A DNA stretch of 64,000 nt from Folioceros fuciformis. Taxonomy: Eukaryota. Below the pieces are notes generated by a model that was not told where the DNA came from, ran no database searches, and saw nothing but the letters and a program-made list of their open reading frames with translations. The stretch is taken from assembly GCA_049999805.1 (NCBI GenBank), contig JBNGIO010006337.1, positions 117,457 through 181,456 of the forward strand. Reading direction: 5' to 3'. Both the position numbers and the translations under genes were made by a program. Positions 3,514-52,830 of the stretch are shown piece by piece (position 1 is the stretch's first letter; the number at the start of each line of letters is the position of its first letter).

Positions 3514-3540
3514 CTAGCCTAGCCTAGCCTAGCCTAGCCT
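3514..3540. repeat. (CCTAG)n microsatellite at the start of a probable 5'-UTR intron (GAG|GTTAGC near 3506 to TTGCAG 3742) of the ARM gene
   Basis: About five CCTAG units read directly; splice sites inferred from consensus. Confidence 0.7.
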
Positions 3541-3774
3541 CACCTCGCCTCGCCCCGCCCCGTTTGCCTGCTGCTTTGTCTTTCTTTGTTGCATGCCAGT
3601 ATTGTGGCCGCACTTCCCTCCCTCTCCCGCTGTCGCCGCTTGGACGTCCTCGCTTCCCTTCTTCCTAGCCAGCGAGCTTGCTATGTTCGAAACGAAGTGT
3701 AGGAAGCGTAGGAGAGTTATGAGTTGGTTGCCTGTCTTGCAGGAATTGGTTGCCGTGCTTGAAATCGGTAAACT

Positions 3775-5502
3775 ATGGGGGTGTTCGGAGCTAAAGGCGG
3801 GGATGTCCAGCACAGATTTGAAAACAGACCGGAAGGTGGTAGCGCGGATTTGAGCGCGAATAATCTGCTTCACCGGGCTCAGCAGCTTGCTCCGCTCGTC
3901 GACGCCGAATCCCTCAAAGTTAAGGCGTTTTTGGGCCGGTGGAAGATCATCAGGAACAGGCTGCAGCAGCTTCCTGCCCACCTCACTGAGCTAGCTGAGT
4001 CCCCTTGCTTTCTGTACAATCCCTTGTGTTGTGAGCTCCTTCAAAGCATTGTGGGTAGTTTAGAACAGGCCAAAGTTCTAGCCAAAAGCTGTACGGACCT
4101 CAAGTATGGAGGCAAGCTACAGATGCAGAGCGACTTGGACTCGCTGGCTACAAAGCTTGACTTGCACATTCACGACTGCGAGCTTGTTATCAAGAGTGGT
4201 GTGCTCGGAGAAGCACCCCTGGCCGTATGCCGTACAACCCCAGGGACTAGCAGGGAGGCAGTGAGGTGGAACATTATCGATCTCATTGCGCGCCTGCAGA
4301 TTGGGAACACCGACTCCAAGCAGAAAGCTCTTAACAGCCTAGTGGAGCTTATGGAGGAAGATGATAAGAACGTCTTGGTGGTTGCAGGTCAAGGTGGCAT
4401 CCCTGCTCTGGTGCACTTGCTGGACTCCAGCTTGCCTGCCATCCGAGAGAAAGCTGCTGCGGCCATTTGCAGCCTTGCTCTCGCTGATAGCTGTGAGCAT
4501 CTGATCGTCTCCGAGGGGGCAATTGCTCCCCTGGTAAGGCTCCTGGAGTCTGGCAGTTCTCTTGCTAAAGAGAAGGCTGCTGCTGCTCTGCAAGGCCTGG
4601 CATTTAGTGCTGAGAACGCCCGAGCAGTGGCTGCCCACGGTGGTGCGCCAGCTCTGATAGAGATTTGCAGGAGTGGTACTCCAGGAGCCCAGGCGGCTGC
4701 GGCTGGTTCTTTGAGAAATCTTGCAGGGATTGCGGAGATCCGCAGTAGCATAGCGGAAGAAGGTGCTATTCCCATTCTTATCAACTTGGTGGAGTCTGGC
4801 ACTCCACTCGCGCAGGAACATGCTGCGGCCGCCCTGCAAAATATTGCCCTCAACGATGACCAGATGAGGCAAGCCATTGCTGCAGAAGGGGGCATTCAGC
4901 CCTTGTTGAGATACTTGGATGGAGCCACATCTCCCAAGGCGCAGGAGATAGCTATGGGTGCTTTGAGAAACATCGCAGCATCTCCTTCCAATATGGAGTA
5001 CTTGCTCACTGCTGGGTTTCTGCCCCGGCTGGTGTCGGTTTTGCGACACGGAGGATTGACTGCTCAACAAACCGCTGCAGCAGCAGTATGCCACCTTGCG
5101 TTTTCGCTGGAAAGCAGGAGAGCTCTGGGTGAAGCTGGTGTCATCCCAGCACTGGTGAAGATGCTGGACGCCAAGACCAGTACTGCTCAGGAGTGTGCAG
5201 CACAGGCATTGGCGAGTCTTCTGCTTGTGGACAGTAATCGGAAGGAATTTCTGCAGGAGGAGAAGGGGATATCAGGTCTCGTGGCTCTGCTGGATTCGCG
5301 TAACATGAGCATTTCAAAACAGCACCCCATCTCCGCTCTCTCTACTCTGGTACAAAACAGCCGATGCAGGAAGCAAATGGTGTCAGCAGGGGCTTGCTAC
5401 CATCTGGGAATGCTTGCTCAGAGAGACATAGCCGGAGCTAAGCGATTGCTCGAGCGCCTGGAGCGTGGCAAGCTGCGCAGCATCTTCAGCAGAACTTCGT
5501 GA
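3775..5502 (+). CDS. Armadillo (ARM) repeat protein, intronless CDS, 575 aa
   Basis: Long ORF with repeated ~41-aa ARM units (GGIPALVHLL, GAIAPLVRLLESGS..AKEKAAAAL, GAIPILINLVESGT), preceded by the plant-type N-terminal helical region (GKLQMQSDLDSL) and ending LLERLERGKLRSIF. Confidence 0.93.
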   Translation: MGVFGAKGGDVQHRFENRPEGGSADLSANNLLHRAQQLAPLVDAESLKVKAFLGRWKIIRNRLQQLPAHLTELAESPCFLYNPLCCELLQSIVGSLEQAKVLAKSCTDLKYGGKLQMQSDLDSLATKLDLHIHDCELVIKSGVLGEAPLAVCRTTPGTSREAVRWNIIDLIARLQIGNTDSKQKALNSLVELMEEDDKNVLVVAGQGGIPALVHLLDSSLPAIREKAAAAICSLALADSCEHLIVSEGAIAPLVRLLESGSSLAKEKAAAALQGLAFSAENARAVAAHGGAPALIEICRSGTPGAQAAAAGSLRNLAGIAEIRSSIAEEGAIPILINLVESGTPLAQEHAAAALQNIALNDDQMRQAIAAEGGIQPLLRYLDGATSPKAQEIAMGALRNIAASPSNMEYLLTAGFLPRLVSVLRHGGLTAQQTAAAAVCHLAFSLESRRALGEAGVIPALVKMLDAKTSTAQECAAQALASLLLVDSNRKEFLQEEKGISGLVALLDSRNMSISKQHPISALSTLVQNSRCRKQMVSAGACYHLGMLAQRDIAGAKRLLERLERGKLRSIFSRTS

Positions 5503-6066
5503 TCTCTCCTCTATCAGTGATCTGCTGGTGATGTCTGCGGGATGTAAAAACCTCTTCATGTCAAAACCTGATTCCAGGCCTTCGGATGCTACCCATAACA
5601 GTCACAGATCCTGCCTCTATCCTGGTTGGGCGTCAAGTGGTATCTTCTATTTTTAAGGTTCTCAACCCCATACCTACAGTGCTTCCTGGCATCGGATTTT
5701 GAGTCGTGAGCAGGCTCTGTTAACTGTTACGACCACGGAATCGGCGGGACTTCCCTTGCACAGTAGGCAACTTGTCAATTCTTCACGCCAAACGTTGGGA
5801 TATGGGATTGGGGCAGAGCGTGTATATGAACGAAGCTATTAGGTGTGACTTGCAAGTGACTGCTAGAATAGCTACTCCTCACTTGGCTTCCTTCTTGCAG
5901 TAGAATGTAGTTGCTTGTAGCGTAGACTGTACTGATCCTCCTGCGATGATGCTGGCACATCTCGGCACTTTTCGTTAAAAAGGTTGCGTGACCTGCACTC
6001 GCATACGTAAGGGCATCTGGAAGCCTTGTCGTCTGAAATAATTACTGTACAATGTGTTTGGAACGA

Positions 6067-8868
6067 CTACGATCTGGAAAGCGATCCAACCCGATTTTGT
6101 ACCTCCAAAATCTGCGAGACGACCCATTCGTGCTGATCGGAATGTCTGACTGACTTCGTGCTGAGCCACATGGGCAGCGTTTTTTCCAGTAATTTTGTTC
6201 CTTCTTGCAGCATGACAAGCGCTTTCGATATCTCAGAAGAAAAGTGGCTGTTCTTGTCGGTTTTCGACCCATCCTGCTGAATCTGCATTCCTACTGTATC
6301 ACTGTGATCCAATTCGCAAGTCCTCCCCATGTATGCATACGTTCTAGTACTACAAGACGTTCTCAGCCTCTTACATTCCAGCCTCAGGGTGTCCCTGGCC
6401 TCAGAATCTGCATCCAAGTAGGGTCGTCCGAGCTGCTTCTCTAAGAAAGTCTGCACATCTTTCATGAAAATATCCTCAACATCAGGCTGAGATGCATCTG
6501 GTGGAACAAAGCGCCATAACTCTGGCATGGGCGTGTTTGCTGCGAATGTTGAAAATGAAGCAAGTCCCGAGTGAAGTACAGCCCAATGTTGCTCCTTCAG
6601 CACAAAATGATAAAGCTTCAACAATGCCTGCGTAGCGGGATCCTCGGTATCGTCTGGGAACGCAACGTCCCAGAGACTGGATAAAAACTCAGCAACAGAT
6701 AACATCAGATGCAGCTTGGTTCCCACATCCTGATTAACAACACAGCCGATGCTCTGGTGAGCTGACTTGAGCAGATCCGTTATCTTACCCAAACTCAGTT
6801 CTTGCTGCACGTACTGGAATATTTTGAGGATCTGGCTTAAAAGAGCAATACTTTCCGTCCTATATCCATTCCCTCCTTGTGCCCAGCTCGTCTTGACGAC
6901 ATTCAGACATACTTCCGCAATTTCTTTCTTTTTGGCATCTACTTGCTCCCCAATCTCTGTGCTGCTCGTCAAGCCAGATGAACAGACATTTCAGCAAAAG
7001 GTGTCAGGTATGACCAAAAGGGCAGAAAAAAGAAAAAAAAAAAAAGGACACGTGGATGGCTCTCTGGAAAGTTTGTGCAGATCAGCTTACCATAGACGCA
7101 AAACATCAAACAAGCTGGCAGCAGCTTTAATTTGTAGCATAATTCGTGTATAATCTCCTTCGTCTCCTACATCCCAAGCAGGCTCTCGCAAGGTGCTTAA
7201 GCAAGTCTCGATCAGTTGAACCACAGCACCTGTCCTCCGACTATCTGGCAGAAGACCAAACGACCATCCTTCTTGCAACAGAACGTGGGCCAAAGTTGCA
7301 GAGGAAAGTGTTTTGAAGGCATTCTTGGCACAAGCTAGTGAGAAAATCCTTTCTGCCTCTGATGAAGATGCCATTGCCAAAAGTGAACAGATCAACCTTG
7401 CCATCCTTTGCACCGGTATTTCAGAGTCTCTGCCAGCTTCGGAACCACACATAGCCTGCAGAATGCTAAACAAGGCCGAGACATGCTCAGATACTAATGC
7501 TTTGTCCCCATTTCGCACAACAAAACACCAGAGGTTTTTTATGAGCTCAAAACAGAGTGCACTTGGATGTATGGCATTCCGGAACAAGAACTGCTCAACA
7601 GCAACCATTGCTCCAGATGATGCAGCCACTGTTATGAATGTCTCAAGTGCTTGCAGTGCCCACACAAACGTCAGCTGTAAACTCGAAGCATACGTGGTTT
7701 CCTTCACATGCTTTGGAAAAGTCTGACGCTGAAGCATATATCCATAAACTCCCTCTTCTGACAAAGTATCCAAAAGCCAGTCAAGGTGCCTGCACACTTC
7801 AAGCAGCACCTCTGTTTTGTACCCATATGATACGGACAGCAGATTAAGAAAAAGACCGGTGCATCCAACCTTTCCATGGACTCCGGACATTCTGTTGTCA
7901 TCGTCAGAAAACAACTGATCAAGAACAGTGACTGCTTTCTCAGAGTTACACTCTGCCCCCGTTCGTGAATATCCATCCACGATGCACTGCAGAAATTGGC
8001 ACTTCTGATCAAGATCTACATCTTCTGTATTGAGCAGAAATTGCAGAAGCGCACAGGTTGCAGGCCACACAGTTTCGCATAGTGTCTGTTTGAGTTTCGT
8101 ATTATTATTGAGATACTCATCTGGCACAGATAGAACGGAGAAGAGCTTTGTAGCAAAGCGAGCAATAGTATGATGTGCCTTCCCAGATTCCTTTGGATAC
8201 CATCTGGCAATCCGCACGGCGTGGGTGATAAAAAACCGTATGAGACGAGCTTCCTTGTTGTCTGCATCAGGTATATTAAGAGGCTTGGAAATATGTACCA
8301 GGCTTGATTTTACTGCTGCCTTCAGCTTCTGCAATCCTTGAAGAACAAGCTGCATGACTATGACACTGACGTCCAAGACCTCCCCAAAGGCTTCAATCCC
8401 TTCCTGCGGCTGAACTAAAAGCATCACGGATTTCCATAGGGCATTCAAAATCTGAGGAGTCCCACTTTCAGCACAGGCATTGGCAGTCAGTACCATACTG
8501 TCCAATGCCACCCTCAGGACGCTCAACCTTGTCACCCTCGTTGTATTGGCATGTCCACCGCTTGCAGATAAGGCAGCGCCTGACGGTGATAGACTTAGCT
8601 TGATACTCGACAGCCAAGACTGTGCACTATCAATCAAGTCACTGGCAAGTGGACGCAGGTCCTCCTCAACATGGTTCATCTTGACATAATTCTGTGCAGA
8701 GAAACGAGGACAGTCGAACTCACTTACCCTACAATATTTAGGAACAATGGAACCTTCATGATAGCGCAGGGAAACTGGGGTTCCATTTCATGATACCTTT
8801 CTCGTGCTCATGATTTCTATGTAGCTGAAAGATGTCTTGATAAAGGCCTCAACCGAACTGGCAGCCAT
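6067..8868 (-). CDS. FLIP: FIDGETIN-LIKE-1-interacting protein (FLIP / C1orf112-FIRRM family), multi-exon; 5' exon boundaries approximate
   Basis: Two large exons (~7090-8690 and 6067-~6963) joined by a GT-AG intron. The C-terminal motif LKEQHWAVLHSGLASFSTFAANTPMPELWRFVPPDA resembles the conserved plant FLIP segment (ERHWALIH..L.AF.YF.ART....LWRF.P.DA). Candidate ATG at 8868 (MAASSVEAFIK). Confidence 0.72.
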
Positions 8869-18080: not shown

Positions 18081-18442
18081 GGATAGGGTGCGGGAGGGAG
18101 GCTAGATCTGGTGCGGTTTGGGAGTGGGGGGGAGAGGGAGGAGGGGGTAGGAAGCTAGGGTGCTTGTTCTTGCTCAAAGCTCTCGGATGTTTGGTTTTGT
18201 GTTGTTGCTTGGTGCAGTGGAGCATGGCCTAGGAGGTGCCGGGGACGCGGGTCAAGCGGGGTTCACCGGGGCCGGGGATGGAGCCGGGGCGGGAGGGAGC
18301 CGGGGTGGCAGCTCGGTGAGTGGGTAGAGACCCTGCTCTGTGCCGCCTCGCGGGTAACGGGAACCGGCGAGGGAGAGAGGGAGAAGGAGAGGGAGAGGGA
18401 GGATGGCTCGCGTGTAGCGCCGGTCGCCTGGAATTTTAAATA

Positions 18443-20314
18443 ATGTCGAACCAGAAGGGGACGATGACTCCGCTCAAGAGCCTTATCCGGGAGTTTCAGG
18501 AGATTAAGGGGGGGATAGGGAGCATGTCGAGGCGGAGCTTCGACGTGAAAGCGCTTTCGGGCCACAGCAGGGCTCGCTCGTGTAGCGTGGTGTTGGACGA
18601 TAGCAGTCCGGTGAAGTATGACATCAAGCCGCCCCAACAGAGTTGCTGGGCGAACATGCCGCCGGAGCTGCTTAGGGATGTCATTCAGCGGGTGGAGTCG
18701 AGCGAGGGCACGTGGCCCTGTAGGAAGCACGTTGTGGCATGCGCAGCCGTCTGCAGCAGCTGGCGGGAGATCACTAAGGAGCTTGTCAAGACTCCGGAGC
18801 AGTCTGGGAAATTGACCTTCCCCATATCTCTGAAGCAAGTGAGTCGGGATGTTGTCTCTGTGCCGCCCCTTTTGCCTCGCTTGCAGTGGAAGGGGGTTAC
18901 TCTCGTGGGCTGTTTTTTTTTGTTTTTTGGGTACTCGTGAAAACTGGTTTCGGGTGTGAGAGTGGAGAGCAGGGTCGAGATATTTGTATGTGCTTAAGGA
19001 TGTCCCTCCTGTGTTTGTCTAATGCCGTTTTGGGATGGTTTTCCGCAGCCTGGACCTCGGAAAGGTTCTGTGGAGTGCTTCATACGACGGGATAGGACCA
19101 CATCAACCTATCATCTGTATTTGGGCTTGCCTCCCAGTGAGTTATCTGTTACTGCTGGTCTTGTTCGAGTCCTTCTTTTGTCCAGTCATGCCTAGGTACT
19201 CCTGAAACTCGTCAGGTTGTTTCGTCTCTCGAGGACGTCCTTTATCTTATTTCCGATCTGTTGTGCAAAAAATACCTTGGAAGCCTTTTTGACTGGTGAA
19301 ACCTCCGGACAGCGCAGCAGTTTGTTCCTCACTTTTTGTTACCTTGTCATGACCACGCCACTCACTGTGCATGTGCTTTTCGTCAACCAGCTCCGCTGGA
19401 TTCTGGGAAGTTTCTCTTGGCGGCACGCAAGGTGAGGAGGGCTACCAGTACTGACTACATAATCTCACTCGATGCGGACGACATGTCACGAGGAAGTAAT
19501 ACTTACGTTGGTAAACTGAGGTGAGGCTCCCTCATGTGTTCCCTGCCAAGTCTTTTACTTTTTCTTTTTTTGAGCCACCTTGAGCTAGTTGATGTGGTGC
19601 GGTGAATGCTTGGAAGACTAGAGATGATGACAGTAGTGTCATGGCAGGTCAAACTTCCTAGGCACCAAATTTACGATTTATGATAGCCAGCCTCCTCATA
19701 GTGGAGCTATTGCCTCAGCAAGTCGTGGAGTTCGACGCATTGGGTCTAAGAGGGTTGCTCCTCGAGTTCCGGCTGGAAGTTACAACGTGGCTCATATTTC
19801 ATACGAGTTGAATGTTCTCGGGACTCGTGGGCCCAGGCGTATGCAATGTACCCTGCATACTATACCATGTTCGGCTATGGAATCAGGAGGAAGTGCACCC
19901 ACTCCTACGGAATTTACTCCTGCTGTGGATGAGCCTCTACCTACATTGTCGTCTCCGAAGAATAAGTCAGCTGTGGCTGATTGCAGTGTTGTTGACGAGT
20001 GTATGCCTGCAGGTCCCAGCAAGGATGGACCTCTCGTGTTGAAAAACAAGGCTCCGAGGTGGCATGAACAGCTCCAGTGCTGGTGTTTAAATTTCCGTGG
20101 ACGAGTTACAGTCGCTTCTGTGAAGAACTTTCAGCTGGTGGCAGCCACGGAGCCTGCGCAAGCTGCCTCCCAAAGCGACCATGACAAGGTGTTGCTACAG
20201 TTTGGCAAAACCGGGAAAGATATGTTTACCATGGATTATCGCTACCCACTTTCAGCATTTCAAGCGTTTGCCATATGTTTGAGTAGCTTCGACACAAAGC
20301 TAGCCTGTGAATAA
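18443..20314 (+). CDS. Tubby-like F-box protein (TLP); exons 18443-18838, 19049-19136, 19391-19520, 19648-20314
   Basis: F-box [82 protein letters not shown]; ends [16 protein letters not shown]. All junctions are GT-AG and in phase. Confidence 0.96.
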
Positions 20315-23300
20315 GGGCCTCCAATCAGCTTGGTCCGTTTCTGAGCCGGGGTTATCGAGTGGTGTAGTTGTAGTTGGGGATGTGCGGATGTCAGTATAGG
20401 GAGGCATTTCAGTGCTGGGTGTGGGAGCACTCTCGGCATTGTCTGTGCAGTTCCACCGCTTGCGTGGCATGTTTCCCGGAGCTCATCGCCATCTTGCTTT
20501 CTTGCTGTTGTCCGACGAGTGTGACATAGAGGATGAGACTAGGCTAATGAGACTTGCAATTCAAAATTGCTAGGCGGATTGCAGGTGGTTGTCCAGGCAA
20601 CTGTGGAAGGACTTTGTCACTGATTTGCTACTAGCTAGGGTCTATGATCTACTGCAGTGGATGTATATAAAAAAATTCTTGCATTGGATATGTCCTTGTA
20701 TTTCCCGTCGTATATTCGTGCAGGGGTGGTTAATGTATGTTTTCTGAACTGTTACTGGAATTCTGTACTTAGCAAGAGATTGAACTCGTAGGTACGTAGG
20801 TGGGAAGGTGTGTATCTGCCACGTGTCTCCTGTTTTATTTTTAGTAGCGCAGCCTCCGGGTGACAGGTGGGTGTACACGTTCTGTTTGTAATTTAGCTGT
20901 CATTTGGGTCGCTCTTATTGCATTTTTGTTCCACACGACGACGGATATATACGACACCACTGGGATGCTCTCGTGGATGGTTCTATAGATGACGCGAAAC
21001 CTGTGGGTGTCTGGAACACACTGGGTCTAACCGGACCCTTCCCTTCTCTTTTTCCGGCGGCCCTTCCTTTCTTTTTTACGAGGGCTTCTCCTTATGTCTG
21101 GTACTGCACATACGCTTCGCCTTGTCCTTATAGAGTACATGGTTGGTCTCCTCGTGGATACAACAGCGGCCTCTTTCCTTGTGCTTGTATGTGGGGTCCT
21201 CCATACAGACCTTCTCTTTTATTGTTGTTACTGCAACATTTTGTGCATTTCTCTTAGTACACGTCTCGTTTCCATGGCCCTATGGGCCCTAATAGGGGGA
21301 GAGACGGCTTGTCCTTGTAGCATAGAAGCCTTGTTCTTGTAGCATAAAAGGGTGTTAGAAAGCTTGTTCTTGTAGCATGGAAGGGTATTTGTAAGCCTGC
21401 TGCCATAGCGCACTTGCAGCATGGGACGGTATTTGTGAGCCTTCCGTCTCGACGCATTCCTCCACTGCCTAGTTTGAAGAGTTGAGAGAATCACATGCTC
21501 ACTATTGGTATGGTATGTAGGGTGAATTACAACCACGCATGTAACTAAAACCTTGTCTTCCTTTGTCAAAAATAGTTTGGCCTATAAAGAAATTCATTTG
21601 GGTACGGTACAAGGGCACTCCTTGTAACAAAAGAAGTCATTCTCCTTAGCTAAGGAGAACATGAAGGCATGCACAACATCATGTGCTACCCACTAGCATG
21701 AGAAGGAGTATGGTTGGTTCTTCAGTTGCGGATGGAGGCTCCACAATTGCAAGCCTTGAAAAAGTAGTCTAGGTGTTGAACTATGCCAAATGGAACTTCA
21801 TCGCACTAGAAAAAGAGGCTAGTGTGATTCAAAAAGTGGGGATGCAAGGCCTAGTCACTATACTAGCATGTAGCTCTAGTATGGATGAATCTTAAAGAAG
21901 AGGCAACTATGTCCATTGATATTACTTCTCTAAGAGGGATGCTTGAAGGCACAAACCCCAACCTCAAGGAGCAATGCCAACTCTAGCCAAACACAGGATA
22001 CCTATGATGGATAAGCACTCTCCTTGATTGTTGCGACCAATTTCATAATGTCCATATCTCATGACATAAAAACTAGGCTTCCTTAGGTAAGTTGCTTAAT
22101 GAAAAACGAATGACACGGTAGTAATGCACTCTTGCACCTACTTTGTCAAGTCCTCATGTATGATCAAAAGAGTTTGTACATGGTTTTATTTTTGGATTAG
22201 TTGAGCTAACAATAGATAACTCAACATGACATACATGTTATTATCCCCTTGCAATCTATAGTCAAGTGAATATGTGCAAAGGTTTTCCTTCATTGTATAA
22301 AGACTTATCATAGTTATGGGATAAGGTCATTATCAATGTCTCTCTTTCCTTAATAGTGGCCTTCTTTCGATAATGAGTTTTCATTGCCCTATAGAGGGTG
22401 CCATCCATTACAATTTACATGACAACGAGGCTTTGCCATGACAAACATGGGACATCCAATCCCCAAAAATTAAATATTATGCAAACTCATCCGAATACTG
22501 ATCTAGACACCACAAGGTATTGAACTTTGAAGTTTCAATGCAAAAGTGAACATAAATAACTACTATACAGTCCTGTTCATTATTATTTTTGTATAAAATA
22601 ATATATTTAATGACTTTAATATTTAGAATTATCCTGCAAATATCTCTGAATGGCTTTGTGTCTTGATGATGTGTTTTATGTGCATCTCCTTGATAACTTG
22701 ATAAATGCACACTGTTTGCACCAATAGATGCGGAGGTTGATGCGTACTAGGTTTTAAAAAGAGGCTCATCGGATTTGAAGAGTGACTTGAGAAGTAGAGA
22801 AGTGATGATTGAGGTAATAGCCACTTGTAGTAATAATGTGTATGTGCTAGAATAATAGTTGGCTAAAGCTTATGATTATGAGTTACTAGTTTTTTTGGAT
22901 AGGTGAATGGGTCTATGATAGTGCTTGAATGGGTCTATGATCATTCTACCATTGAATAATCCATGAGTAATCAAATGTTTACTTTCTCTTGTACATAGAT
23001 GAGGATGAATTGCTAGTTTTTAGCAAGCTAGATATGCACATAATGGTTTCTAGTGAGATAAAAATAGGCTTGCAAGATGCACATGAACCTTATTTTGGTC
23101 AAATTTTGAGAATACATGTTGTCAGCAAATTTAGAGATTCCTGAATCTTTAGAAGTGTTGTTATTTGAAACGAGGTGTGGAGGTGCTTTCTACCTCATCC
23201 ACAAAGTTGTGCAATTGTAGTAGATCAATTGCAGTTGTTAAGGTGTCTTCAATTAGGCCAAGGTGTGAAGATGCCTTCCCTTCGTCCACAAAGTTGTGAG

Positions 23301-24047
23301 GGTGCCAATGATTAAAATGACGTGTGGAAGTACTACAACTTTGAACACCTCCCCTCATCACACAAGTTGTTTAATGGTCTTAAGAGATGTGGTACTTCAA
23401 CACATTCAGACACCTCTTATCATCACATAAGATGTTTGATGGTGTTAGGAGATGTGGTACCTCCACACATTTAGACATTTGACATTTGCCATGATCATCA
23501 CATAGGATATTTAATGGTATCCAAAGGTATGAGATCTCTCCACACCTACATCTTGTGGAAGTACTCTTCCCTTTAAAGAATTGATTTTTTTTTTGGAGCA
23601 GCACATCTAAAACGTATTGATCCGCACTTACGGTGCATTTATGGAGTTCTTACAAGCTTAACAATATGAACCACATCTACCAATAGACCTAATTGATGTT
23701 GTGTAAAAAAATAATATTAATCCTAATTCCAATAAGTTTACTAGATATAATATTTTAAGCTCATAATGTAATATTTCCATGATATGCTAATAAAGACCTC
23801 GTTTCCGGTAATCTTCTCTTCCTTATGAGTATGTAAAGTATCACTATCCACATTTTTATCGTAGTTTTTCGTGTGTTGTAAGTCCTTGTGATCATGAAGA
23901 AGGCTAGATATTAAGTTGATAAGAAGCAGCAGCCTTAGATCTCGTCCATTCATTCCACAACACTCACTTGCATTGCACTCATCTCTCACTGACGTCTAAG
24001 GTAGGATCTCTCTATGACATCTAGGTCTCAACTCATGACACCCATTG

Positions 24048-24283
24048 ACTACACTCAACTCTCTCTCTCTCTAACAACTTAGCACTAGTTATCCAACTAC
24101 TCATTGACAAGTAGCTCTCAACTTGTAACGCCCACTAACTGCACTCAACTCTCTCTCTCTCTAACAACTTGGCACTAGTTATCCAACTACTCACTGACAA
24201 GTAGCTCTCAACTTGTGACGCCCACTAACTGCACTCAACTCTCTCTCTTACAACTTAGCACTAGTTATCTAACTACTCATTGA
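24048..24283. repeat. 90-bp tandem repeat, ~2.6 copies
   Basis: CACTCAACTCTCTCTC..ACAACTTAGCACTAGTTATCCAACTACTCA recurs at 24052, 24142 and 24232. Confidence 0.9.
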
Positions 24284-24479
24284 CGATGCTCTTTATTTAA
24301 CAATACTTAACAACAATGAGTCTCTCAACTCTCTGCTAAGGACTCGCCACTAGTCCACTAACATGCTCTTTACAACAACACTAGTTCATTTATGATGCTG
24401 TTTACAACATTTAACAACAACAAGTCTCTCCTACCTCTCCTAGCCAAATTCAAGTCTTTCCAGTCTCATTCCTAGGTTT

Positions 24480-24910
24480 CCAACAAAGTGTCTCTCTCTT
24501 CTAAGGTGAAGATTCTTTCCAACAAAGAGTCTCTCTCTTCTAAGGTGAAGATTCTTAGCATGCTTGTATATAAAGAGTCTCTCTCTTCTACAATAAAGAT
24601 TCTTAGCTTGTATAAAGAGTTAGGGTACTAGTGAAGATTATGCCTATACAAAGAGAAAAGCTAACAAAGACATAGTCTCTCTTTCCTAGTGTGAAGATTC
24701 TTAGCTTATATAAAGAGTCTCTCTCTTCTAGAATGAAGATTCTTAGCCTATATATAAAGAGTTAGGGTGAAGATTCTACTAACCTCTATTAGTGTGAAGA
24801 TTCTGCCTGTACAAACGATACAAATACTTACAGCAATATTATGGTGAAGATTCTTAGTCTACACAAATGTTTACAACAACGAGTCTTGCCTACCTTCTAA
24901 GGTGAAGTGT
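24480..24910. repeat. Degenerate tandem array built on AAAGAGTCTCTCTCTTCTA..GTGAAGATTCTTAGC
   Basis: GAAGATTCT core recurs many times with variable spacing. Confidence 0.8.
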
Positions 24911-25639
24911 AAGTACTGATCCAACGGATCGACCATGAAATAGAGGAGGAGAGTAGAGACAAGTTAGGGATGGAACCTGAACAACAGACTGAGGTCTAGG
25001 TCGATTTAGACAGGACACAAGTGACGAGCGAGAGTGAGAACAAAGTGGGGGAGAGGCATCGACAAGAAGGGAACGGGTCCGTTCACCCGGGCCATGGCCG
25101 ACGGGGTCGCATGCCGGGGAGGCAATATCCACAATACTTCAGAGTAGGAAGGATAGGGTCGAGGTGATGAAGTGCAAAGCAAGGAGGTAGGGTGCGAAGC
25201 GGTTGATGGTGGGATCGATCCGCTCCTTATTGTGTGTGGTCCCGCGGCAAGGTGATCGTTGTGGTAGAGGTCGAACGGGTTGGCCAAGTGCGCTCCCCAA
25301 GCATTGCGTATCTTAGATGCTTCTATAGGAAGATAGTCAGGTGCGTCGGCAAGTCATCGTGAAGGGCAGAGGTTCTTTGGTGAGCCAACAGGAAGGAGAG
25401 GAGGCGAGAGTTTGAGCGCAAAGGAGGTCAAGAGACTGCATGCGTTGGGAAAGAGATAGACAAGCATACTCTGGGTGGAAAGCAGGGTTCGAGGCACCTC
25501 TCAATTATCACAGGAGGGGTTTTATACGAAAGCCAAACCTAATGTTCAAATAATCGACATTAATGAAAAAAGACCTACAATCTACACCAAGGCCATGGCA
25601 ATCCGATGTTGTCAGGTGCCAGCTACCAACCGACGCCTT

Positions 25640-26373
25640 ATCTTAATGAGAAGGTGACAGGGTAGGAGAAGTGGGGATAGAGGAGGCCGTTGGTGGAGCG
25701 GGATCCACGGGCGAGGAGGGTCTAGGAGGTGATTTTGCTCTGCTTATCGGAGTGGGGAGCGTAGCAGAGCTGGCCTTGGGTGAGCGGACCAGAAGCTGAG
25801 TATCAAATTCTGGAGAGGGAGGGCCTCGGGTCGGAGCCTCCGAACTGCTAGGTGCGGTCCATATGTTCGAGGGAAGCGCTGGAGAAAGTTGCACCCACCA
25901 CGGTCTTCGCCGTCTCGCTTAGAACTCGAAGGACTTTGCTATGGAAGGAGACGTAGCTGTTGTTGAGTTGTTGGATGGCATCAACCACCATCCGATGGAG
26001 TGTCTGGTACTCTGTTTGGCCATTTGGCTTCAAGTAAGTTGATGTGCTGCGCTACTGCCAACGCGATGTACCTCTAAAGTTCTTTTAAAGCCACCGAGGT
26101 GACCGTAGTCAATTCCCGTAGCCGTAGGTTGATAACGGCCTTGGCTTGTGCCATGAGGAGGGCAACCTCCATGTGGGCGTCTTGCGATTAGTAGTCCGCT
26201 AGTTGAGCCTGCAATTCTTTCGTCTCAGCCTGCAGACTATTGGCACGTCCCACTAGTACCTTGCATTCTTCTTTCCACAACTGTTCGTGGCTCTGCATAT
26301 CTTCACATAGGCGTGCGAGTTCTGCCTTCAGGGCCGAAACCTCCTATTGGGCCTCCAATTTGCCCGCCATCCA
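25640..26373 (-). pseudogene. Decayed coiled-coil ORF, probably transposon-derived
   Basis: Reads MAGKLEAQ*EVSALKAELARLCEDMQSHEQLWKEECKVLVGRANSLQAETKELQAQLADY*, followed by a Pro/Ser-rich tail; several in-frame stops. Confidence 0.45.
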
Positions 26374-27343
26374 TTAACAACTTGTAGACCACCTCCTGGA
26401 GATGCTACTCTTTATTCAACAACACTTACAACAAGAGTTTGGCAATCTGCACCCAATTGGCTACTATCCTTAACCTTGTCTGACAAACTTGCTTAAGCCC
26501 CCAAGCGCCAACTATTTCTCCATATTGGGCCCACAACTAAGCTCCTTCTCAAGCATTGAGACAGTCACTCTTTAGTATATGTCCTCAAAGCTTTTGCCCT
26601 AGAATTTTAGACTCCGCAATTAAGCCATTTCTAAAGCTCGGAATCATGCATACCACTTATCTTCAAATATTAGTGGTTGTTACAACTCCATCCTCTTTGA
26701 ACATCGTCTGAAATATATCAACTTCCTCCTGCAAGCCGCCTTTCGTCTTTTCCACCAGCCAAAGGTTATCTATTTTTAACCCAAAAACGTGCCATATCGC
26801 ACATATGGTGTTAGTGATGGTTGATCGCCCGCCTTCTGCGTATTTGAAACGAACTATTGTCAGAGGGGTCTCATCATGACAACCACATGATGTCCATTAG
26901 GGTTTTACAAAATACACACTTATGGATGAGCAGAGCGATTTGCTGGTGCGCTCAAGTGTGCGCCTCCATTGCTTACAAGTTTGCCTCCTATCTATCGATG
27001 ATTCCTAACCTTGAAACTACGAAGATTCTATCTGTTTCGTCATGGAGACAATAATTTCATTCGCTCTCTCCTCATTCTCCGCGCCCATGTATGTACTTAA
27101 GTCCAATCACTTTTAATTTAGTGTGAAGAATTACTTATTGTCTATATAATTTTTTCTCGAAAGCATGAAGAAATATGTATAACTTGGTTTAGTGTCATGA
27201 AGGTGACCGCCGATTAGGTAAGAAACCCTCATCCAATGTTATTTAGAATAGAATAGCAAATATATCTCTTAAGTAAACCAATGCTAGGATAAATGAACCT
27301 AGCTTAGCTAGATATTTTGCAAACTAGCTTAGAAATAGCTAGA

Positions 27344-27953
27344 TGTTTCTAGGCAAGTTGAGTCGGAACACATGTTGGGTATTTCCCAACTTGTTGTTGG
27401 TGTAACCCTGCTGCCCAACGTGGGAAAATAGCAGAACTTGGGTACAATAGCAAGGCATTATGGAAAGGAGTTGCGCTGATGCAAGAGCGTGAAGCCAACT
27501 TAGCTGGACGCTGTATCGGAAGATGGCTGGTGCTAGGCAAAAGGGGCAGCCAAGGCAGAAGTCGGTAGTTGTTGAAGTTGCACCGCGCAGTACTGTAACT
27601 TGGGGAAGGCAGCTCAAACCCTGTTTTTGTGTTCTTTGGAATTGGGAGCTAGGATGAAGAACGTTTTCAGCGCATTTGGTTCCAGTGTTGCAGTTCATGG
27701 CGTAACTTACTGACTCACTTTCTGGATATGGATTGCCCTCACTTGCAAGCAGATTGTGCTGCAATCTGTGACATGCAGAGTAGTGGAAAACACTTGCAGC
27801 AGATTGTGCTGCAATCTGTGACATGCAGAGTAGTGGAAAACAACATTAGGATACAGGTACAAATGTTGAATGTGCAAGCCGGAACCCCAAGCTTCAAGTG
27901 GGTGCTGGCCAAGCTCAGGACTCAACTCATCCCAACATTGCCCTAGCACGACA
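27344..27953. mobile_element. Possible solo LTR or MITE-like insertion (~610 bp) with an internal ~50-bp tandem duplication (27740-27842)
   Basis: TG...CA ends with imperfect inverted termini (TGTTTCTAGGCAAGTTG vs reverse complement TGTCGTGCTAGGGCAATGTTG); GC-richer than flanks. Putative TSD matches only 3/5 (CTAGA/TTAGG). Confidence 0.4.
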
Positions 27954-29061
27954 TTAGGTCTTTACAAGATCACCTTTTAATTCTAATTCGTAAGGTTGTT
28001 GGAATTAGAGTCTTTATTATGAAAAAAAGTTAAGAAAACTCATTAACCACAGGACTTGAGGGAACAACAATGAAGACAAAACAAGCGTTGGGCATTAACC
28101 CTTGAAGATTGTTTAAAGCCTCAAGGCCTCCTTTGGTCTACTAAATTATCAAGGAATATGGAATGAGTTGTGTAATTGGATGTGTAATGCGTTTTTAATC
28201 AGTCTAACTAGTTAAAACTACCAGCAACTAAAAAGATGGAGACCATGAGCCCTAATTCAGCAAGTCTAGAAAAATCCCTAATTAATATTTTCAGAAAGTC
28301 TCACTTTAAGGAACATAATTAATTCAATAGCAATATTTTAATATAACTAATAGTATACTAGTATAATATAAGTTAATATAATTTAGTATAATTAAAATAT
28401 ATCATATTTATGGTCACACCACTTAAATGCTTACTATATCAGCCCATAGTACCTAACTTCTGCAAACTAACTTCAGCTAGTATTAGAGTAAACTAAGATG
28501 ACAATTGCTTCCATTTCATATCAATATTTGATTACCAACTTGTACCATTTGCAAGTTAGGATGAAAACATTGGAGATCTAATAGCCCTTGAAGAGCACAT
28601 GGATGATATGACATTGAATACAAGGATGGCTATCCCAAGGACAATTATGCAGCTTTCTTCATGCTACTAAATGTTATATGGCATACATAGAAAAATGGAT
28701 GTTATTGTAGCCTTACATCCTCCAATAGCGTAAGAAACTCCCTTGGAGAGTAGGTCAAATATAGCTTAGACTGCACAAGCTGAAGGTATCATATATGGTG
28801 AGAAAGAAAGGAAAGAAGATAATAGGGAAACCAAAACTTCAGGAAAGAAGGGAATACAAAAGGCTTGATCCCTCCTTGCCATTCTGCTCACTTTTACGAC
28901 TTTGCCGAACGTGTTCATTGTATGCTTGTTGCTGTGACTTTGGAGTGAACATTCTAAGAAGGATCGATGTTTTTAGAAGTGTGGTACGTTTATCCATAAA
29001 ATTAGCTCTATGAAAGGTTGGATGCTCTGAAGATCAGTAGCAAAAAGCAAAAATCCCCAAA

Positions 29062-31515
29062 ATGTCAGTGATTCTGTCACGTTTCTTCAAGAAGAACTCA
29101 AAGTTGGGTGAAGGAATTGATGGAGACGAACTTGGAAAGGTGTTCTTCTATTATGCTTCTATTAGAATAAAGACTTTAGTTCAAGGACAGACACCCAAAT
29201 TGATTCAACTATTACAACCTTGTACTAAATGAGTTCGTTCTTTAATGTGCATAATAACCAAGGCTCGACTGTCTTACTCAACTATAGATTTAGGAGACTA
29301 GGTCATGATACATCTACAATAAGGATCCATAAAACCTTGTAGCTTTGTTCTTCTCCTAGATGTGAATCCTATTTTTTGAATTGGGTCATTGAATTTGACA
29401 TAGGCTTGTGATGTGACAGCCATGGTTTGAGGGGTGTAAAATCCAAGACTTCAAACTTGGTAAAATTTTGGGAACAGGTAGTTTTGGTAGAGTCTCATAT
29501 GCTCACCACATTGCGACGAATCAAGTGTGTGCAGTAAAGTCCTTATCCAAATCACAAATCGTTAAGACAAAACAGGTACATACAAAACGTTGATGACATT
29601 GTTTGTTGAGATGAAACCCTAAACAAAAATATGTTTGGTGTATGTGGGTATGTTTTAATACGTACCTTAAACACTTTTAGGTTTCTCACGTGAAGCAAGA
29701 AAAAGGCATTCTTCATAGACTTGATTTTCCATTCATTGTAAACCTCCTCGGTTATTGCCAAGATGAGAAAAATGTGCATCTTGTTCTAGAATATGTTTGT
29801 GGGTGAGTGACTGTGATTTGATTCATACATTTGTTTTTTGTTGAACATTCTATACTGTACCTATTCCCAATGAGTGAACTCAGTTCTTTGCATTCTAAAA
29901 GCAACATAGCCAATTAAAAAGTGAACTAGTGATTTGTATTGTTAGACTATTGAACAGAGCTGCATGTGGTTCAGCGGAGAATTTTTCACATATCTTCGCA
30001 CGACTGGACGATTCGATGAAAACACTACGGTAAGTATGACATTCTTAGAAATAGTTACATGTCTTTGTCTTCTTTGTTTCACAATCAAGGAACACTATCG
30101 TACCTCATTACAAAAAGGACAAAGTACTTCTTAAATTCAGCAAAAAAATCTTTAATTTGATAAAATTTCACAAAAAAAAAATGATGAATCCAATCAATTT
30201 GTTGGATATTGAAGAATGACGAGCCACATTGTTGTCCAGAGATTTTATGCATCCCAAGTTCTCCTTGCTTTTGAACATATTCACAACATGGATATCATAT
30301 ACAGAGATCTTAAGGTGAATTGCAATGAATGTGATCAAGAATGCATATGAAATAAACTAGAAACTAATTGTTTTACTATTTCAGCCTGAAAATCTTTTAT
30401 TGGATGAGATTGGGAACATTAAAATTACAGACTTTGGATTTGCCAAGCAAATTGATCATAGAACATACACACTTTGTGGTATTATTTCTCTCTGAAAATT
30501 TAGTTTTTTAGATAATATTTAAAGAAGTATAATAATTCATGCTACAATATTTGTCAAAACTTTCTAGGTACACCTGACTACCTTGCACCTGAGATCATTT
30601 TGAACAAAGGTCATGGGAAACCAGTTGATTGGTGAGATGTAGTGTCCAACACAAATATTCATAATGATATTTTAAGTAAATTATATATTAATATTGATTA
30701 AGTAGTTCTATGAATGCAGGTGGGCATTTGGTGTCTTAATCTATGAAATGTTAGCTGGATACCCCCCTTTCTATGATGAAGGCATATGACTTAAGCCCTT
30801 CCTTAACATCACGAAGTTACTTTGAAAGTTGGGCTGATGAATGAACTCATATGAACAATGTTTTGCAGATCCCATGGGAACTTATCAAAAGATTTTAAGT
30901 GGGAAGTTACAATTTCCAGGGCACTTCTCTAGGAAGTAGGTTTACAAAAAAAAAAACCCATAATTTAAATTACTTAACTAAAGTCATCAGACATGCATGT
31001 GATGGTGGTTATCTTAATTCTATGTAGTGCTAAGGATTTGGTGAGAAGGCTGTTGCAAGCGGATTTGACAAAAAGGTACTTGTCATGACTAGGAATAGTT
31101 GGGTGACACACATTCTTTTGGGAAACCTTACTCTTTCAAACATATGTTTGAACCCACAATGAATTATATGAATGTGTAGGATTGGTTGTCTTAAAGGTGG
31201 TATAAAAGACATTAAGACACATGCTTGGTTTGGAAACTTGGATTGGGATAATGTGTTAAGAAAACGAGATATGGCTCCTATTAGGCCTAAAGTCTCGGTA
31301 TAAACCCTAAATCCTGTTTCTTCTTGTCTTACAATGCTCATTTCAGTCTGAATTTGTTGACATGTGGATAGATGAAAGAGTATCTAACATTAGAGTAATA
31401 CATCACACAGGGTCCTGAAGATGCAAGCAACTTTGATGATTATTCAAAACTTGAGGCTCCTAGAGATGACTTTGCCTTAAGTTCAGAAGAACAAGACTTA
31501 TTCAAGGATTTGTGA
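29062..31515 (+). CDS. cAMP-dependent protein kinase catalytic subunit (PKA-C-like AGC kinase), 12 exons, 347 aa: 29062-29139, 29420-29575, 29681-29802, 29975-30029, 30240-30314, 30385-30478, 30568-30631, 30720-30781, 30869-30935, 31028-31075, 31180-31297, 31411-31515
   Basis: Manual splicing gives a stop-free 1044-nt CDS with [124 protein letters not shown] and DASNFDDY. Ten GT-AG introns and one GC-AG; exon 1 is the least certain. Confidence 0.93.
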
Positions 31516-31588
31516 TGGATCTCTTCCTAAGGTAAACAATCAGTGTAAGATCAACTTATAGTTATCTATTCCTGTCATAAGAAGAACG

Positions 31589-31666
31589 CTGGTGCTTATG
31601 AGGAGCAATGTCATCTGGTGCTTATGAGGAGCAATGTCATCTAGTGCTTATGAGGAGCAATGTCAT
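31589..31666. repeat. 26-bp tandem repeat x3 (CTGGTGCTTATGAGGAGCAATGTCAT) just 3' of the kinase stop
   Basis: Read directly; one substitution in the third copy. Confidence 0.92.
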
Positions 31667-32195
31667 TAGAAGTGCGAGTAATTTTGAAGGGAGAAAAAAG
31701 AAAGCTTGATTCAAGTTTCATGAGAAGGTGGGCTATAAGGTTGCCTTTTGTATGGATTGTGCATGGGAATGAACCATAGCAAGAGAACATGTGTTTCATG
31801 TATGAGGTATAAGAGATCTTGAAAGATCCTTTAGTTACCTCCAAAAAAAAAAAAAAAAAATTCTAGAAAATCTCTCTACAGTGTTAGATTAAGACATCTC
31901 CACACATTAAGAGATTGATCTAGATAAGGCCTGAAGAGTGTTAAATCAATATCTCAATAATATTTCAATAAGAAACATCATAGCTCTTCAGACTTTCAAA
32001 ATATATATTTTTGGTGAAATATATAATTTACCTAAATATATGATAATATTTTATAATATTCCTCAAAATTAAAATAAATTCATAAAAAACAGTAAATAGG
32101 GTGGGAGCCACTAATTTCAATAAGAATTAGGTTATATATATATATATATATCCATATTTTAAAACATATAATGAATATTACTATTTTAAACTTGT

Positions 32196-51354: not shown

Positions 51355-52152
51355 TCACATGTTGGCCTTGCGTCTACTCCAAAACGTCAGGATTTCACGA
51401 CCCATGCGATACTCAACGCTGAGGTGATTTTCCTCGCTGAACACTGGCCTGAACCCCAGAGGAAGCAGAACCTGCTCGTAGGCTTCCACGGACACCGCGA
51501 ACGGAGGGCCACCAGCGTACTTCGCTATAGGGTACATGAGAGTGACCAGGAGGCCGTCCGGCGCAAGCAGCTCAAAAAAAAAAAAAAAAAAAAAAAAAAA
51601 CTTCGAAGGCTCCATGGCACAGAAGAAGGTGTAGTCAAATATGAGATCAAAGGGAGCTGCGGGAGCATATGTGAAGAAGTCGTGCACAATAAACTCCGCA
51701 AACTCAGAGTTGTCGACACCGGCAGAAAGGGCTTTGGCAATGCCTACAGCCTTGTCTGAAATATCCAGGCCGACGACGTGCCTTGCCGGCCCGGCCAGGG
51801 CAATGACATCGTGCCCGGCTCCGCACCCGGGGACCAGGGCTCGGCCTTCCGGCAGCTTCCCGTCCCGCACCAGGCTTGCCAACACCGGAGTCACCTTTCC
51901 CAGATCCCACGGCACCACCTTCTCCTCCCACAGCTTATCCCACGCTTGCATAGGCTGTCCGTCCAGCATTGTTCGCACCCGTTCTACGAGCTTCTTGGTC
52001 TCTGACGGGCTCCTGCTGCTCCCACCGGCCGCAGTCGTCATCGTGTACGTCCATAGCTTGCTGCCGCCGGGAATCACCTTCCTCCGACCGAGCTGGCCAC
52101 CGGACAGCGTGCACGTCCGGAACGTCCTGCACAGGCAGGTGGCCTTCAGCAT
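51355..52152 (-). CDS. HOL: SAM-dependent thiol/halide methyltransferase (HOL family), intronless, with an anomalous internal T27 tract
   Basis: AWDKLWEEKVVPWDLG, GRALVPGCGAGHDV, VVGLDIS, FDLIFDYTFFCAMEP, LLAPDGLLVTLMYPI, GGPPFAVS. ATG at 52152 follows a telo-box-like AAACCCTAG; alternative ATG at ~52041. Confidence 0.9.
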   Translation of the reverse strand: MLKATCLCRTFRTCTLSGGQLGRRKVIPGGSKLWTYTMTTAAGGSSRSPSETKKLVERVRTMLDGQPMQAWDKLWEEKVVPWDLGKVTPVLASLVRDGKLPEGRALVPGCGAGHDVIALAGPARHVVGLDISDKAVGIAKALSAGVDNSEFAEFIVHDFFTYAPAAPFDLIFDYTFFCAMEPSKFFFFFFFFFELLAPDGLLVTLMYPIAKYAGGPPFAVSVEAYEQVLLPLGFRPVFSEENHLSVEYRMGREILTFWSRRKANM

Positions 52153-52830
52153 GGCTAGGGTTTGAATCAGGTGTGAGGTCCAGCTTGCGTCCAACGTTTC
52201 GAGCACGAATCGGGATAATTTTTGGTGGACCAGTTTCTGCGGGGGTGGGAGTAAAAGTTTGTTGAGGCGTTTCGATGAGTGGAGTTTAGAGGGGGATGTA
52301 GCAAAGCAGCGAAGGACGGAACCTTGAATGCGGTGTAGTGCGTACTGCATTCACAACGTTCTTGCTGTGGAGAATTCATCCCGACGAGGCAGGACTATTG
52401 CAGGGGAGTTGGTGGATGTGTCACATGTTCACTAAACAGCCTGGCTGACATCAAAGCGAGTGCGAACACGAAGCGAATGAGTCCCAATAGCAGCACGGCA
52501 AGCGCATTCAATGCAGTTGTTGCTTCCTTGAATCATCGTACGTACGTCCCGCCCCGGCGTCCAGTCTGGCCGCCTCTGATGCAGGCTGTAGCATTGAATG
52601 ATGCGGCCGGGAGTGGCTGATTCTTTCAGTTCGAGGCAGGTGCAACAAAAACAGTCTCAGGAGTCCGACTACCGCTACAGCTGTATGAGTGCAGGTCGTT
52701 GCAGAGAGCCATCTGCCTCTGCGATGCCGGAAACTTCTGGCACCCCGCTGGTGTTAGGATCCGCTCCGCATCACACTGCCGGCGTCTCGGTCTACTCCCG
52801 AGTGAAGAAGTTGCTGAGGTCGAGGAAGGA

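Follow-up and report, generated by a model that had tools for sequence, protein, structure and literature searches.

Judged from its sequence, an intact gene for an ortholog of the catalytic subunit (PKA-C) of cAMP-dependent protein kinase is present in the window, the stretch of 64,000 nucleotides from the hornwort Folioceros fuciformis that was analysed here, and it is accompanied by cognate regulatory subunit (PKA-R) genes in a genome that has flagellar machinery. The encoded 347-aa kinase is almost certainly a PKA-C ortholog, and its gene is very probably spliced and functional. The best explanation of these observations, and one that we consider likely, is that the protein would be the catalytic subunit of a cAMP-PKA module, held by PKA-R, freed by cAMP made by CAPE (a fused phosphodiesterase-cyclase) and acting in sperm.

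Gene structure and related sequences

The gene model was rebuilt from the sequence and comprises 12 exons of 48-156 nt on the forward strand (Table 1), from an ATG at 29062 to a TGA ending at 31515, with a spliced length of 1044 nt that encodes 347 amino acids and a single terminal stop. It is far beyond chance expectation, and none of the ORFs of at least 120 aa in the window's ORF list overlaps it. A sequence-only reading of this DNA had described twelve short exons of just this size range, outside the ORF track, that splice in phase into a 347-aa kinase with PKA hallmark motifs (GTGSFG, activation loop, FDDY); the rebuilt model confirms this, and every named motif is present, with GTGSFG at residues 44-49, a 12-residue motif at 75-86, a 15-residue motif at 188-202 and FDDY at 321-324. 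Ten of the 11 introns are GT-AG, and intron 8 alone is GC-AG. This GC donor is required, because read-through from exon 8 meets a stop two codons later. The exons and open frame of the earlier intact-gene model thus stand, but the GC donor had been overlooked.

Table 1. Exons of the Folioceros fuciformis PKA-C gene and its single non-canonical intron (positions in the window; mammalian residue labels in parentheses)
Feature	Position	Strand	Residues and features
Exon 1	29062..29139	+	aa 1-26; ATG; basic amphipathic N-terminal tip, no Gly2; net charge +4, hydrophobic moment 0.67
Exon 2	29420..29575	+	aa 27-78; Gly-rich loop, beta3 Lys66 (K72)
Exon 3	29681..29802	+	aa 79-118; His81/Glu85 (H87/E91), hinge
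Exon 4	29975..30029	+	aa 119-137; Glu121 (E127), Arg127 (R133); length and phase equal in L044, L045, L047
Exon 5	30240..30314	+	aa 138-162; YRDLK catalytic loop
Exon 6	30385..30478	+	aa 163-193; Glu164 (E170), DFG, activation-loop Thr191 (T197)
Exon 7	30568..30631	+	aa 194-214; P+1 loop, APE, Lys207/Lys211 (K213/K217)
Exon 8	30720..30781	+	aa 215-235; Glu224 (E230), YPPF
Intron 8	30782..30868	+	non-canonical GC-AG, AAG|GCATAT
Exon 9	30869..30935	+	aa 236-257; Tyr241 (Y247)
Exon 10	31028..31075	+	aa 258-273
Exon 11	31180..31297	+	aa 274-313; Arg274 (R280), start of AGC C-tail
Exon 12	31411..31515	+	aa 314-347, TGA; NFDDY, conserved Ser337 (candidate turn motif), terminal LFKDL

Related sequences support the model independently. 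When exon 2 was used as the sole query, two proteins were recovered among six candidates, the best of which, P0001, is also 347 aa long and aligns with the hornwort protein ungapped, with 319 of 347 residues identical. Exons 4, 7, 8, 9 and 10 are fully identical between the two, as are the residues flanking the intron 8 junction; exon 1 is identical at 23 of 26 positions, including the first 18 amino acids, and the linker beyond these varies. The P0001 contig, at 2253 nt, is shorter than the 2454-nt genomic span; most likely, therefore, it derives from a related plant and is a transcript that has been spliced.

When metagenome contigs were scanned with a degenerate pattern, five genomic PKA-C copies were detected (L043-L047), three of which are near a Sphagnum protein (e.g. 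L045, 209/218). Exons that match those of the window in length and phase, with AG and GT or GC flanks, include exons 4-12 in L044 and L045 and exons 5-12 in L043; the same holds for exons 4-10 in L047 and 8-9 in L046, and the remaining window-type exons were not found within the fetched stretches. The search pattern demanded G-G-Y after exon 8, that is, either an intron or a glycine codon there, and the position of intron 8 is consequently not independent evidence; the other intron positions are. The intron 8 donor is GT in all five copies, at the window's position, and only the Folioceros fuciformis copy has GC.

This GC donor invites the reading that the window holds a recently damaged or mis-assembled allele, in which the GC either breaks splicing or is an assembly error, so that the protein would be truncated. 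GC-AG introns form a small but ordinary class, which counts against such damage; this donor fits their customary consensus weakly, which counts in its favour. The uniform GT of the metagenome orthologs and the AT-rich, CpG-poor and repeat-rich surroundings also favour damage. Against it, the 12 exons are free of stops and frameshifts, the catalytic residues are intact, and both sides of the intron 8 junction are identical to P0001; searches of the organism's own genome found no second copy of the gene, which makes it single-copy within their reach. A damaged allele is accordingly regarded as very improbable, and an intact, spliced gene is preferred.

Several repeats adjoin the gene. A dispersed repeat at 27791-27953, some 1.1 kb upstream of the start codon, occurs on many other contigs with 86-99% identity and is overlapped by a 50-nt tandem pair (27740-27842), and a 26-nt unit is present three times at 31589-31666, directly after the stop codon, in what is likely the 3' UTR. 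Elsewhere in the window, a methyltransferase-like ORF (51355-52350, minus strand) is broken in frame by a low-complexity poly-Phe run, possibly an assembly artefact.

Assignment to the PKA catalytic subunits

With P0001 as the query, the leading PDB match was mammalian PKA-C (391 bits, E 3.6e-116), followed by the type-1 PKA chain 1fot (328 bits) and PKG1 (293 bits). Pfam assigned only kinase-domain families to P0001, with no CNB or other domain, in agreement with the earlier description of a kinase without extra domains. Relatives were taken as the best 120 of the 2537 proteins with E<=1e-100 among 8000 scored. In these 120, mosses, liverworts, ferns, lycophytes, Mesostigma, Cryptomeria and Chlorokybus supply the top named relatives, of which Selaginella has the highest identity. 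Ceratopteris contributes four PKA-C paralogs, and no angiosperm is named, many of the entries being nameless. The exact hornwort protein did not appear among the proteins listed here or in the exon 2 search, which does not bear on its annotation in the assembly. The Selaginella cluster contains XP_024539653.1, and the Marchantia cluster contains Mp3g14790 (MpPKAC), whose sequence is that of MpC in Fig. S10 of PMC11032487.

An AGC-kinase phylogeny, which the sequence-only reading had proposed as a check, was inferred with IQ-TREE from 55 rows: 48 of 125 PKA-like proteins (named or top-ranking), the hornwort protein and six kinases from its own genome, with PDK1 and PRKX outside the sample. The hornwort protein falls in a land-plant PKA clade of 18 rows that also includes MpPKAC (support 100/98). 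Within it, the hornwort protein pairs with P0001 (100/99), and the sister group of this pair is the mosses plus liverworts (98/94). The hornwort protein is 76% identical to Selaginella PKA-C, 71% identical to MpPKAC and 49-55% identical to animal and fungal PKA, compared with 36-41% for the six further kinases from its own genome.

It could be argued that the protein is instead another AGC kinase, such as a PKG-like kinase, S6K, PDK1 or an AGCVIII kinase. The PKA group as a whole is weakly separated from the genome's PKG-like row (88/47), and an AU test did not reject a forced grouping with that kinase (p=0.122); the place of the PKG-like row is unsure because of its very long branch (3.5). 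Against this, a forced grouping with S6K, AGCVIII, PHOT and NEO was rejected (AU p=0.0018), the PDB ranking is led by PKA-C, no CNB or other domain is present, and identity is 38% to both the PKG-like kinase and S6K and 36% to AGCVIII. Any such assignment is hardly credible. For the individual candidates, membership of S6K or AGCVIII was rejected by the AU result together with 36-38% identity, and the lack of a CNB domain fused to the kinase and the 38% identity to the PKG-like kinase speak against PKG.

Assignment to PKA-C also agrees with the individual residues. An ungapped PDB alignment (offset +6) was used to compare 70 hand-picked positions, for which we assume the customary mammalian PKA residue labels (e.g. 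K72, T197). Sixty of the 70 are identical in the hornwort protein, among them the glycine loop, the catalytic loop and DFG, with G50/52/55, K72, H87, E91, E127, D166, K168, E170, N171, D184, T197, E230, Y247, F327 and Y330, and both the activation-loop T197 and the pocket formed by H87/R165/K189/T195 are intact. The ten differences are M120L, R134T, W196Y, E203D, F239Y, D241E, I244M and, at residues 331-333, the change of the acidic EEE to SKL, most of which are common to other plant orthologs; W196Y maps to the R-binding surface. Of the acidic residues that bind basic substrates, E127, E170 and E230 are identical, and E203 is Asp in all seven plant and algal orthologs compared. The AGC C-tail keeps NFDDY and ends in FKDL, not FxxF. 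The hornwort protein and the seven plant and algal orthologs all have a Ser or Thr 11 residues from the C-terminus, two columns off S338.

Comparison with known catalytic subunits gives a consistent picture. MpPKAC of Marchantia polymorpha (Mp3g14790, P0124) is an ortholog in the same clade, with 232 of 294 core residues identical, and shares E203D, W196Y, the SKLE tail and the presence of two R genes per genome. It differs in its longer N-terminal linker (384 aa in total, versus 347 aa) and in having Ala at T183, which the hornwort protein keeps; the comparison with MpPKAC is at the protein level only, the GC donor of intron 8 being a feature of the hornwort gene. The Selaginella moellendorffii protein XP_024539653.1 (P0121; lycophyte) has 241 of 294 core residues identical, a similar N-terminal ARIF/SRFF motif and the same FKDL end, but carries tandem copies of the N-terminal motif. 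In residues 1-45 of this RefSeq model, AR[IV]FT[KR]K occurs twice in tandem, perhaps through the merging of two alternative first exons. Mammalian C-alpha (PDB 2gnj, 1atp) aligns ungapped over aa 35-328 of P0001. Unlike mammalian C-alpha, the hornwort subunit has no Gly2 and carries W196Y, E203D, F239Y and the EEE to SKL change, and the plant R partners are without RIIa docking.

Partner genes and genomic setting

Two PKA-R genes were detected in the same genome, on contigs C1057 and C6235, with inhibitor sites (RRRGVSAE, RRTGVSAE) and two phosphate-binding cassettes each. The C6235 exons have PKA-R as their best PDB match, the C1057 exon matches a fern PKA-R, and one PKA-R exon is 73% identical to KP509_01G015100, which is fern CrR1 of Table S2 in PMC11032487. 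According to the same table, Anthoceros agrestis also has two PKA-R genes. PDE-I exons were found on contigs C949 and C5978, and contigs C2810 and C581 carry class III cyclase exons. The cyclase exon on C2810 terminates in RELTEK, an ending also implied by the reverse primers for MpCAPE (Table S3, PMC11032487). The sequence-only reading had pointed to PKA-R and CAPE as the partners to look for. The first search was positive, in that each R gene combines an inhibitor site with a pair of cAMP-binding domains; the second was positive in part, with CAPE-like cyclase and PDE exons present but lying on four separate contigs, and a fused PDE-cyclase gene was not seen in this fragmented assembly.

The last cyclase exon exists in two near-identical copies (L030 on C2810, L042 on C581), of which the C581 copy, with a stop and a frame change, is probably a damaged duplicate, an allele or an assembly error. 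Dynein heavy chains are encoded on six contigs of the genome, and one dynein heavy chain gene shares its scaffold with the PKA-C gene, about 98 kb before the window (G000:C6337:19348-19680). A PKG-like gene on C6119 (L029, about 3050-8200, minus strand) encodes an AGC kinase with RTYSMCGTPDYMAPE that is preceded by several CNB domains; in the accessible text of PMC11032487, one Marchantia gene (Mp1g01440) is listed as 'cGMP-dependent protein kinase like'.

The genome also encodes a neochrome, in an uninterrupted frame of at least 1260 aa (L032, 1-3783, plus strand) with GAF, PHY, two PAS/LOV and kinase domains, and a phototropin in a similarly uninterrupted frame (L033, 1283-4891, minus strand). 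According to PMC4525182, neochromes are confined, as far as is known, to zygnematalean algae, ferns and hornworts. The earlier suggestion of a hornwort- or lycophyte-type plant is consequently upheld for a hornwort, by the neochrome and the tree position, but not for a lycophyte, for which the high identity to Selaginella had spoken.

Within the window, one ungapped stretch (18081-32195) holds both the PKA-C gene and a Tubby-domain gene, and ARM/DUF7032, EPSPS and peroxidase genes are found elsewhere. This setting bears on the possibility that the gene is a contaminant, or was acquired horizontally from a fungus, animal or protist. Its composition might suggest as much, with GC of 0.35 and GC3 of 0.34 against a GC3 of 0.43-0.67 in the neighbouring ORFs, but the moss-like PKA-C orthologs are also AT-rich (GC 0.38). 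Moreover, the protein nests among land-plant orthologs at the position expected of a hornwort, intron positions are common with the moss-like genes, and linkage to the Tubby-domain gene is ungapped, with the other three genes in the same window. A foreign origin is vanishingly unlikely, and the non-plant contaminant that the sequence-only reading had named as a possible refutation is contradicted by phylogeny, shared introns and linkage alike; the gene is native to a plant with flagellated sperm.

Low GC (0.32-0.37) and a scarcity of CAG/CTG characterise most of the cAMP-module genes (the window gene, L025, L026, L027, L029, L030 and L042), the exception being the second PKA-R gene (L028) at 0.49. 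The S6K, SnRK1, Tubby and EPSPS genes have GC of 0.48-0.55. The AT-richness of the cAMP-module genes, which the moss-like orthologs share, might be a trace left by transposon-like methylation of male-germline genes.

Function, anchoring and significance

A working scheme for the module can be assembled from PKA biochemistry and Marchantia genetics. The kinase would be phosphorylated at Thr191 and kept inactive by the pseudosubstrate site (RRRGV or RRTGV) of one of the two R subunits, which would fill its cleft. CAPE would both make and remove cAMP, and cAMP bound to the two CNB domains of R would free the kinase to phosphorylate basic R-R-x-S/T sites. In maturing and swimming sperm, its most likely targets would be proteins of the flagellum or proteins that regulate dynein. 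According to PMC11032487, loss of CAPE or double knockout of the R genes in Marchantia impairs sperm motility and leaves sperm morphology normal, and MpCAPE and both MpPKAR genes show antheridium-biased expression, with the R genes peaking in antheridia. By analogy, the main role of the hornwort kinase is probably in sperm motility.

It is also conceivable that a functional PKA-C does its main work elsewhere, or not only in sperm, for instance in spores, the sporophyte or other male-gametophyte processes. PKA-C orthologs occur in algae and in Cryptomeria, a conifer without motile sperm, and the gene is therefore not confined to sperm-bearing plants; since Cryptomeria also retains CAPE (PMC8115329) and PKA-R (Table S2, PMC11032487), sperm specificity is not absolute. 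The four Ceratopteris paralogs, and the strong difference in GC between the two hornwort R genes (0.36 vs 0.49), which could reflect different expression domains, point in the same direction, and the expression data and knockouts in the accessible text of PMC11032487 cover CAPE and the R subunits, not MpPKAC. Against a principal role outside sperm are the antheridium bias of MpCAPE and MpPKAR, the motility phenotype of mutants with normal sperm morphology and, among the best 120 of the 2537 relatives, many of them nameless, the absence of any angiosperm name. On balance such a role is rather unlikely, and a main function in sperm is preferred.

The traits of metazoan-type PKA that relate to anchoring, Gly2 on C and RIIa docking on R, are absent from the hornwort C subunit and from the plant R proteins P0130 and P0131, respectively. 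None of 20 streptophyte PKA-C sequences has Gly2, the site of myristoylation, and no RIIa docking domain (PF02197) was found in P0130 or P0131, with mite and fungal controls positive; MpR1 and MpR2 are gapped at this region in Fig. S9 of PMC11032487. A PF02197 profile search of the hornwort's own genome returned no match anywhere, controls included, and so carries no weight either way. As the plant R subunits are without a dimerisation/docking domain, one R and one C probably pair as a heterodimer (R:C) in the holoenzyme. Plasmodium PKA, from an unrelated lineage outside the 55-row tree, would be a precedent, in that its R subunit is described as having no such domain and its holoenzyme is thought to be a heterodimer (PMC5746546).

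The N-terminal tip may be relevant here. The motif [RK][LIVF]F occurs within the first 12 residues of 13 of the 20 streptophyte sequences, compared with four among 96 further PKA-like hits. For the N-terminal hydrophobic moment, the medians of these two sets are 0.51 and 0.32; the motif was defined post hoc, the sequences are related, and several of the misses resemble truncated models. Tentatively, streptophyte PKA may thus be anchored differently from animal PKA, through a docking-less R, an unmyristoylated C and the basic amphipathic tip encoded by exon 1 as a tether, an idea that we think possible but would not bet on. If true, the tip would tether an R:C heterodimer at the flagellar membrane or axoneme beside CAPE, and would provide AKAP-free cAMP compartments in plant sperm. 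The words dimerization, docking and myristoyl never occur in the main text of PMC11032487.

The hornwort gene is real, but would be expected by specialists, as orthologs are already published or annotated. The novelty implied by the sequence-only reading is accordingly not borne out: MpPKAC and the Anthoceros PKA-R1/R2 genes are published (PMC11032487), and Selaginella PKA-C is named 'cAMP-dependent protein kinase catalytic subunit beta' in RefSeq. In the literature searched, which most subscription journals lay outside, neither a paper on the hornwort PKA-C itself nor an activity assay of any plant PKA-C was found, and PMC13190419, in its accessible text, merely cites MpPKAR.

The practical value of the gene lies in a clean, full-length model with which a land-plant kinase could be tested as a cAMP-released PKA, and in a GC-AG intron of the type that gene finders can miss. 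For the biology of the family, the hornwort catalytic subunit joins a cAMP-PKA module that has been shown genetically in a liverwort. With orthologs in each of the three bryophyte lineages, in lycophytes, in ferns and in a conifer, and with intron positions common to the hornwort gene and the moss-like copies, the module therefore dates to at least the land-plant ancestor.
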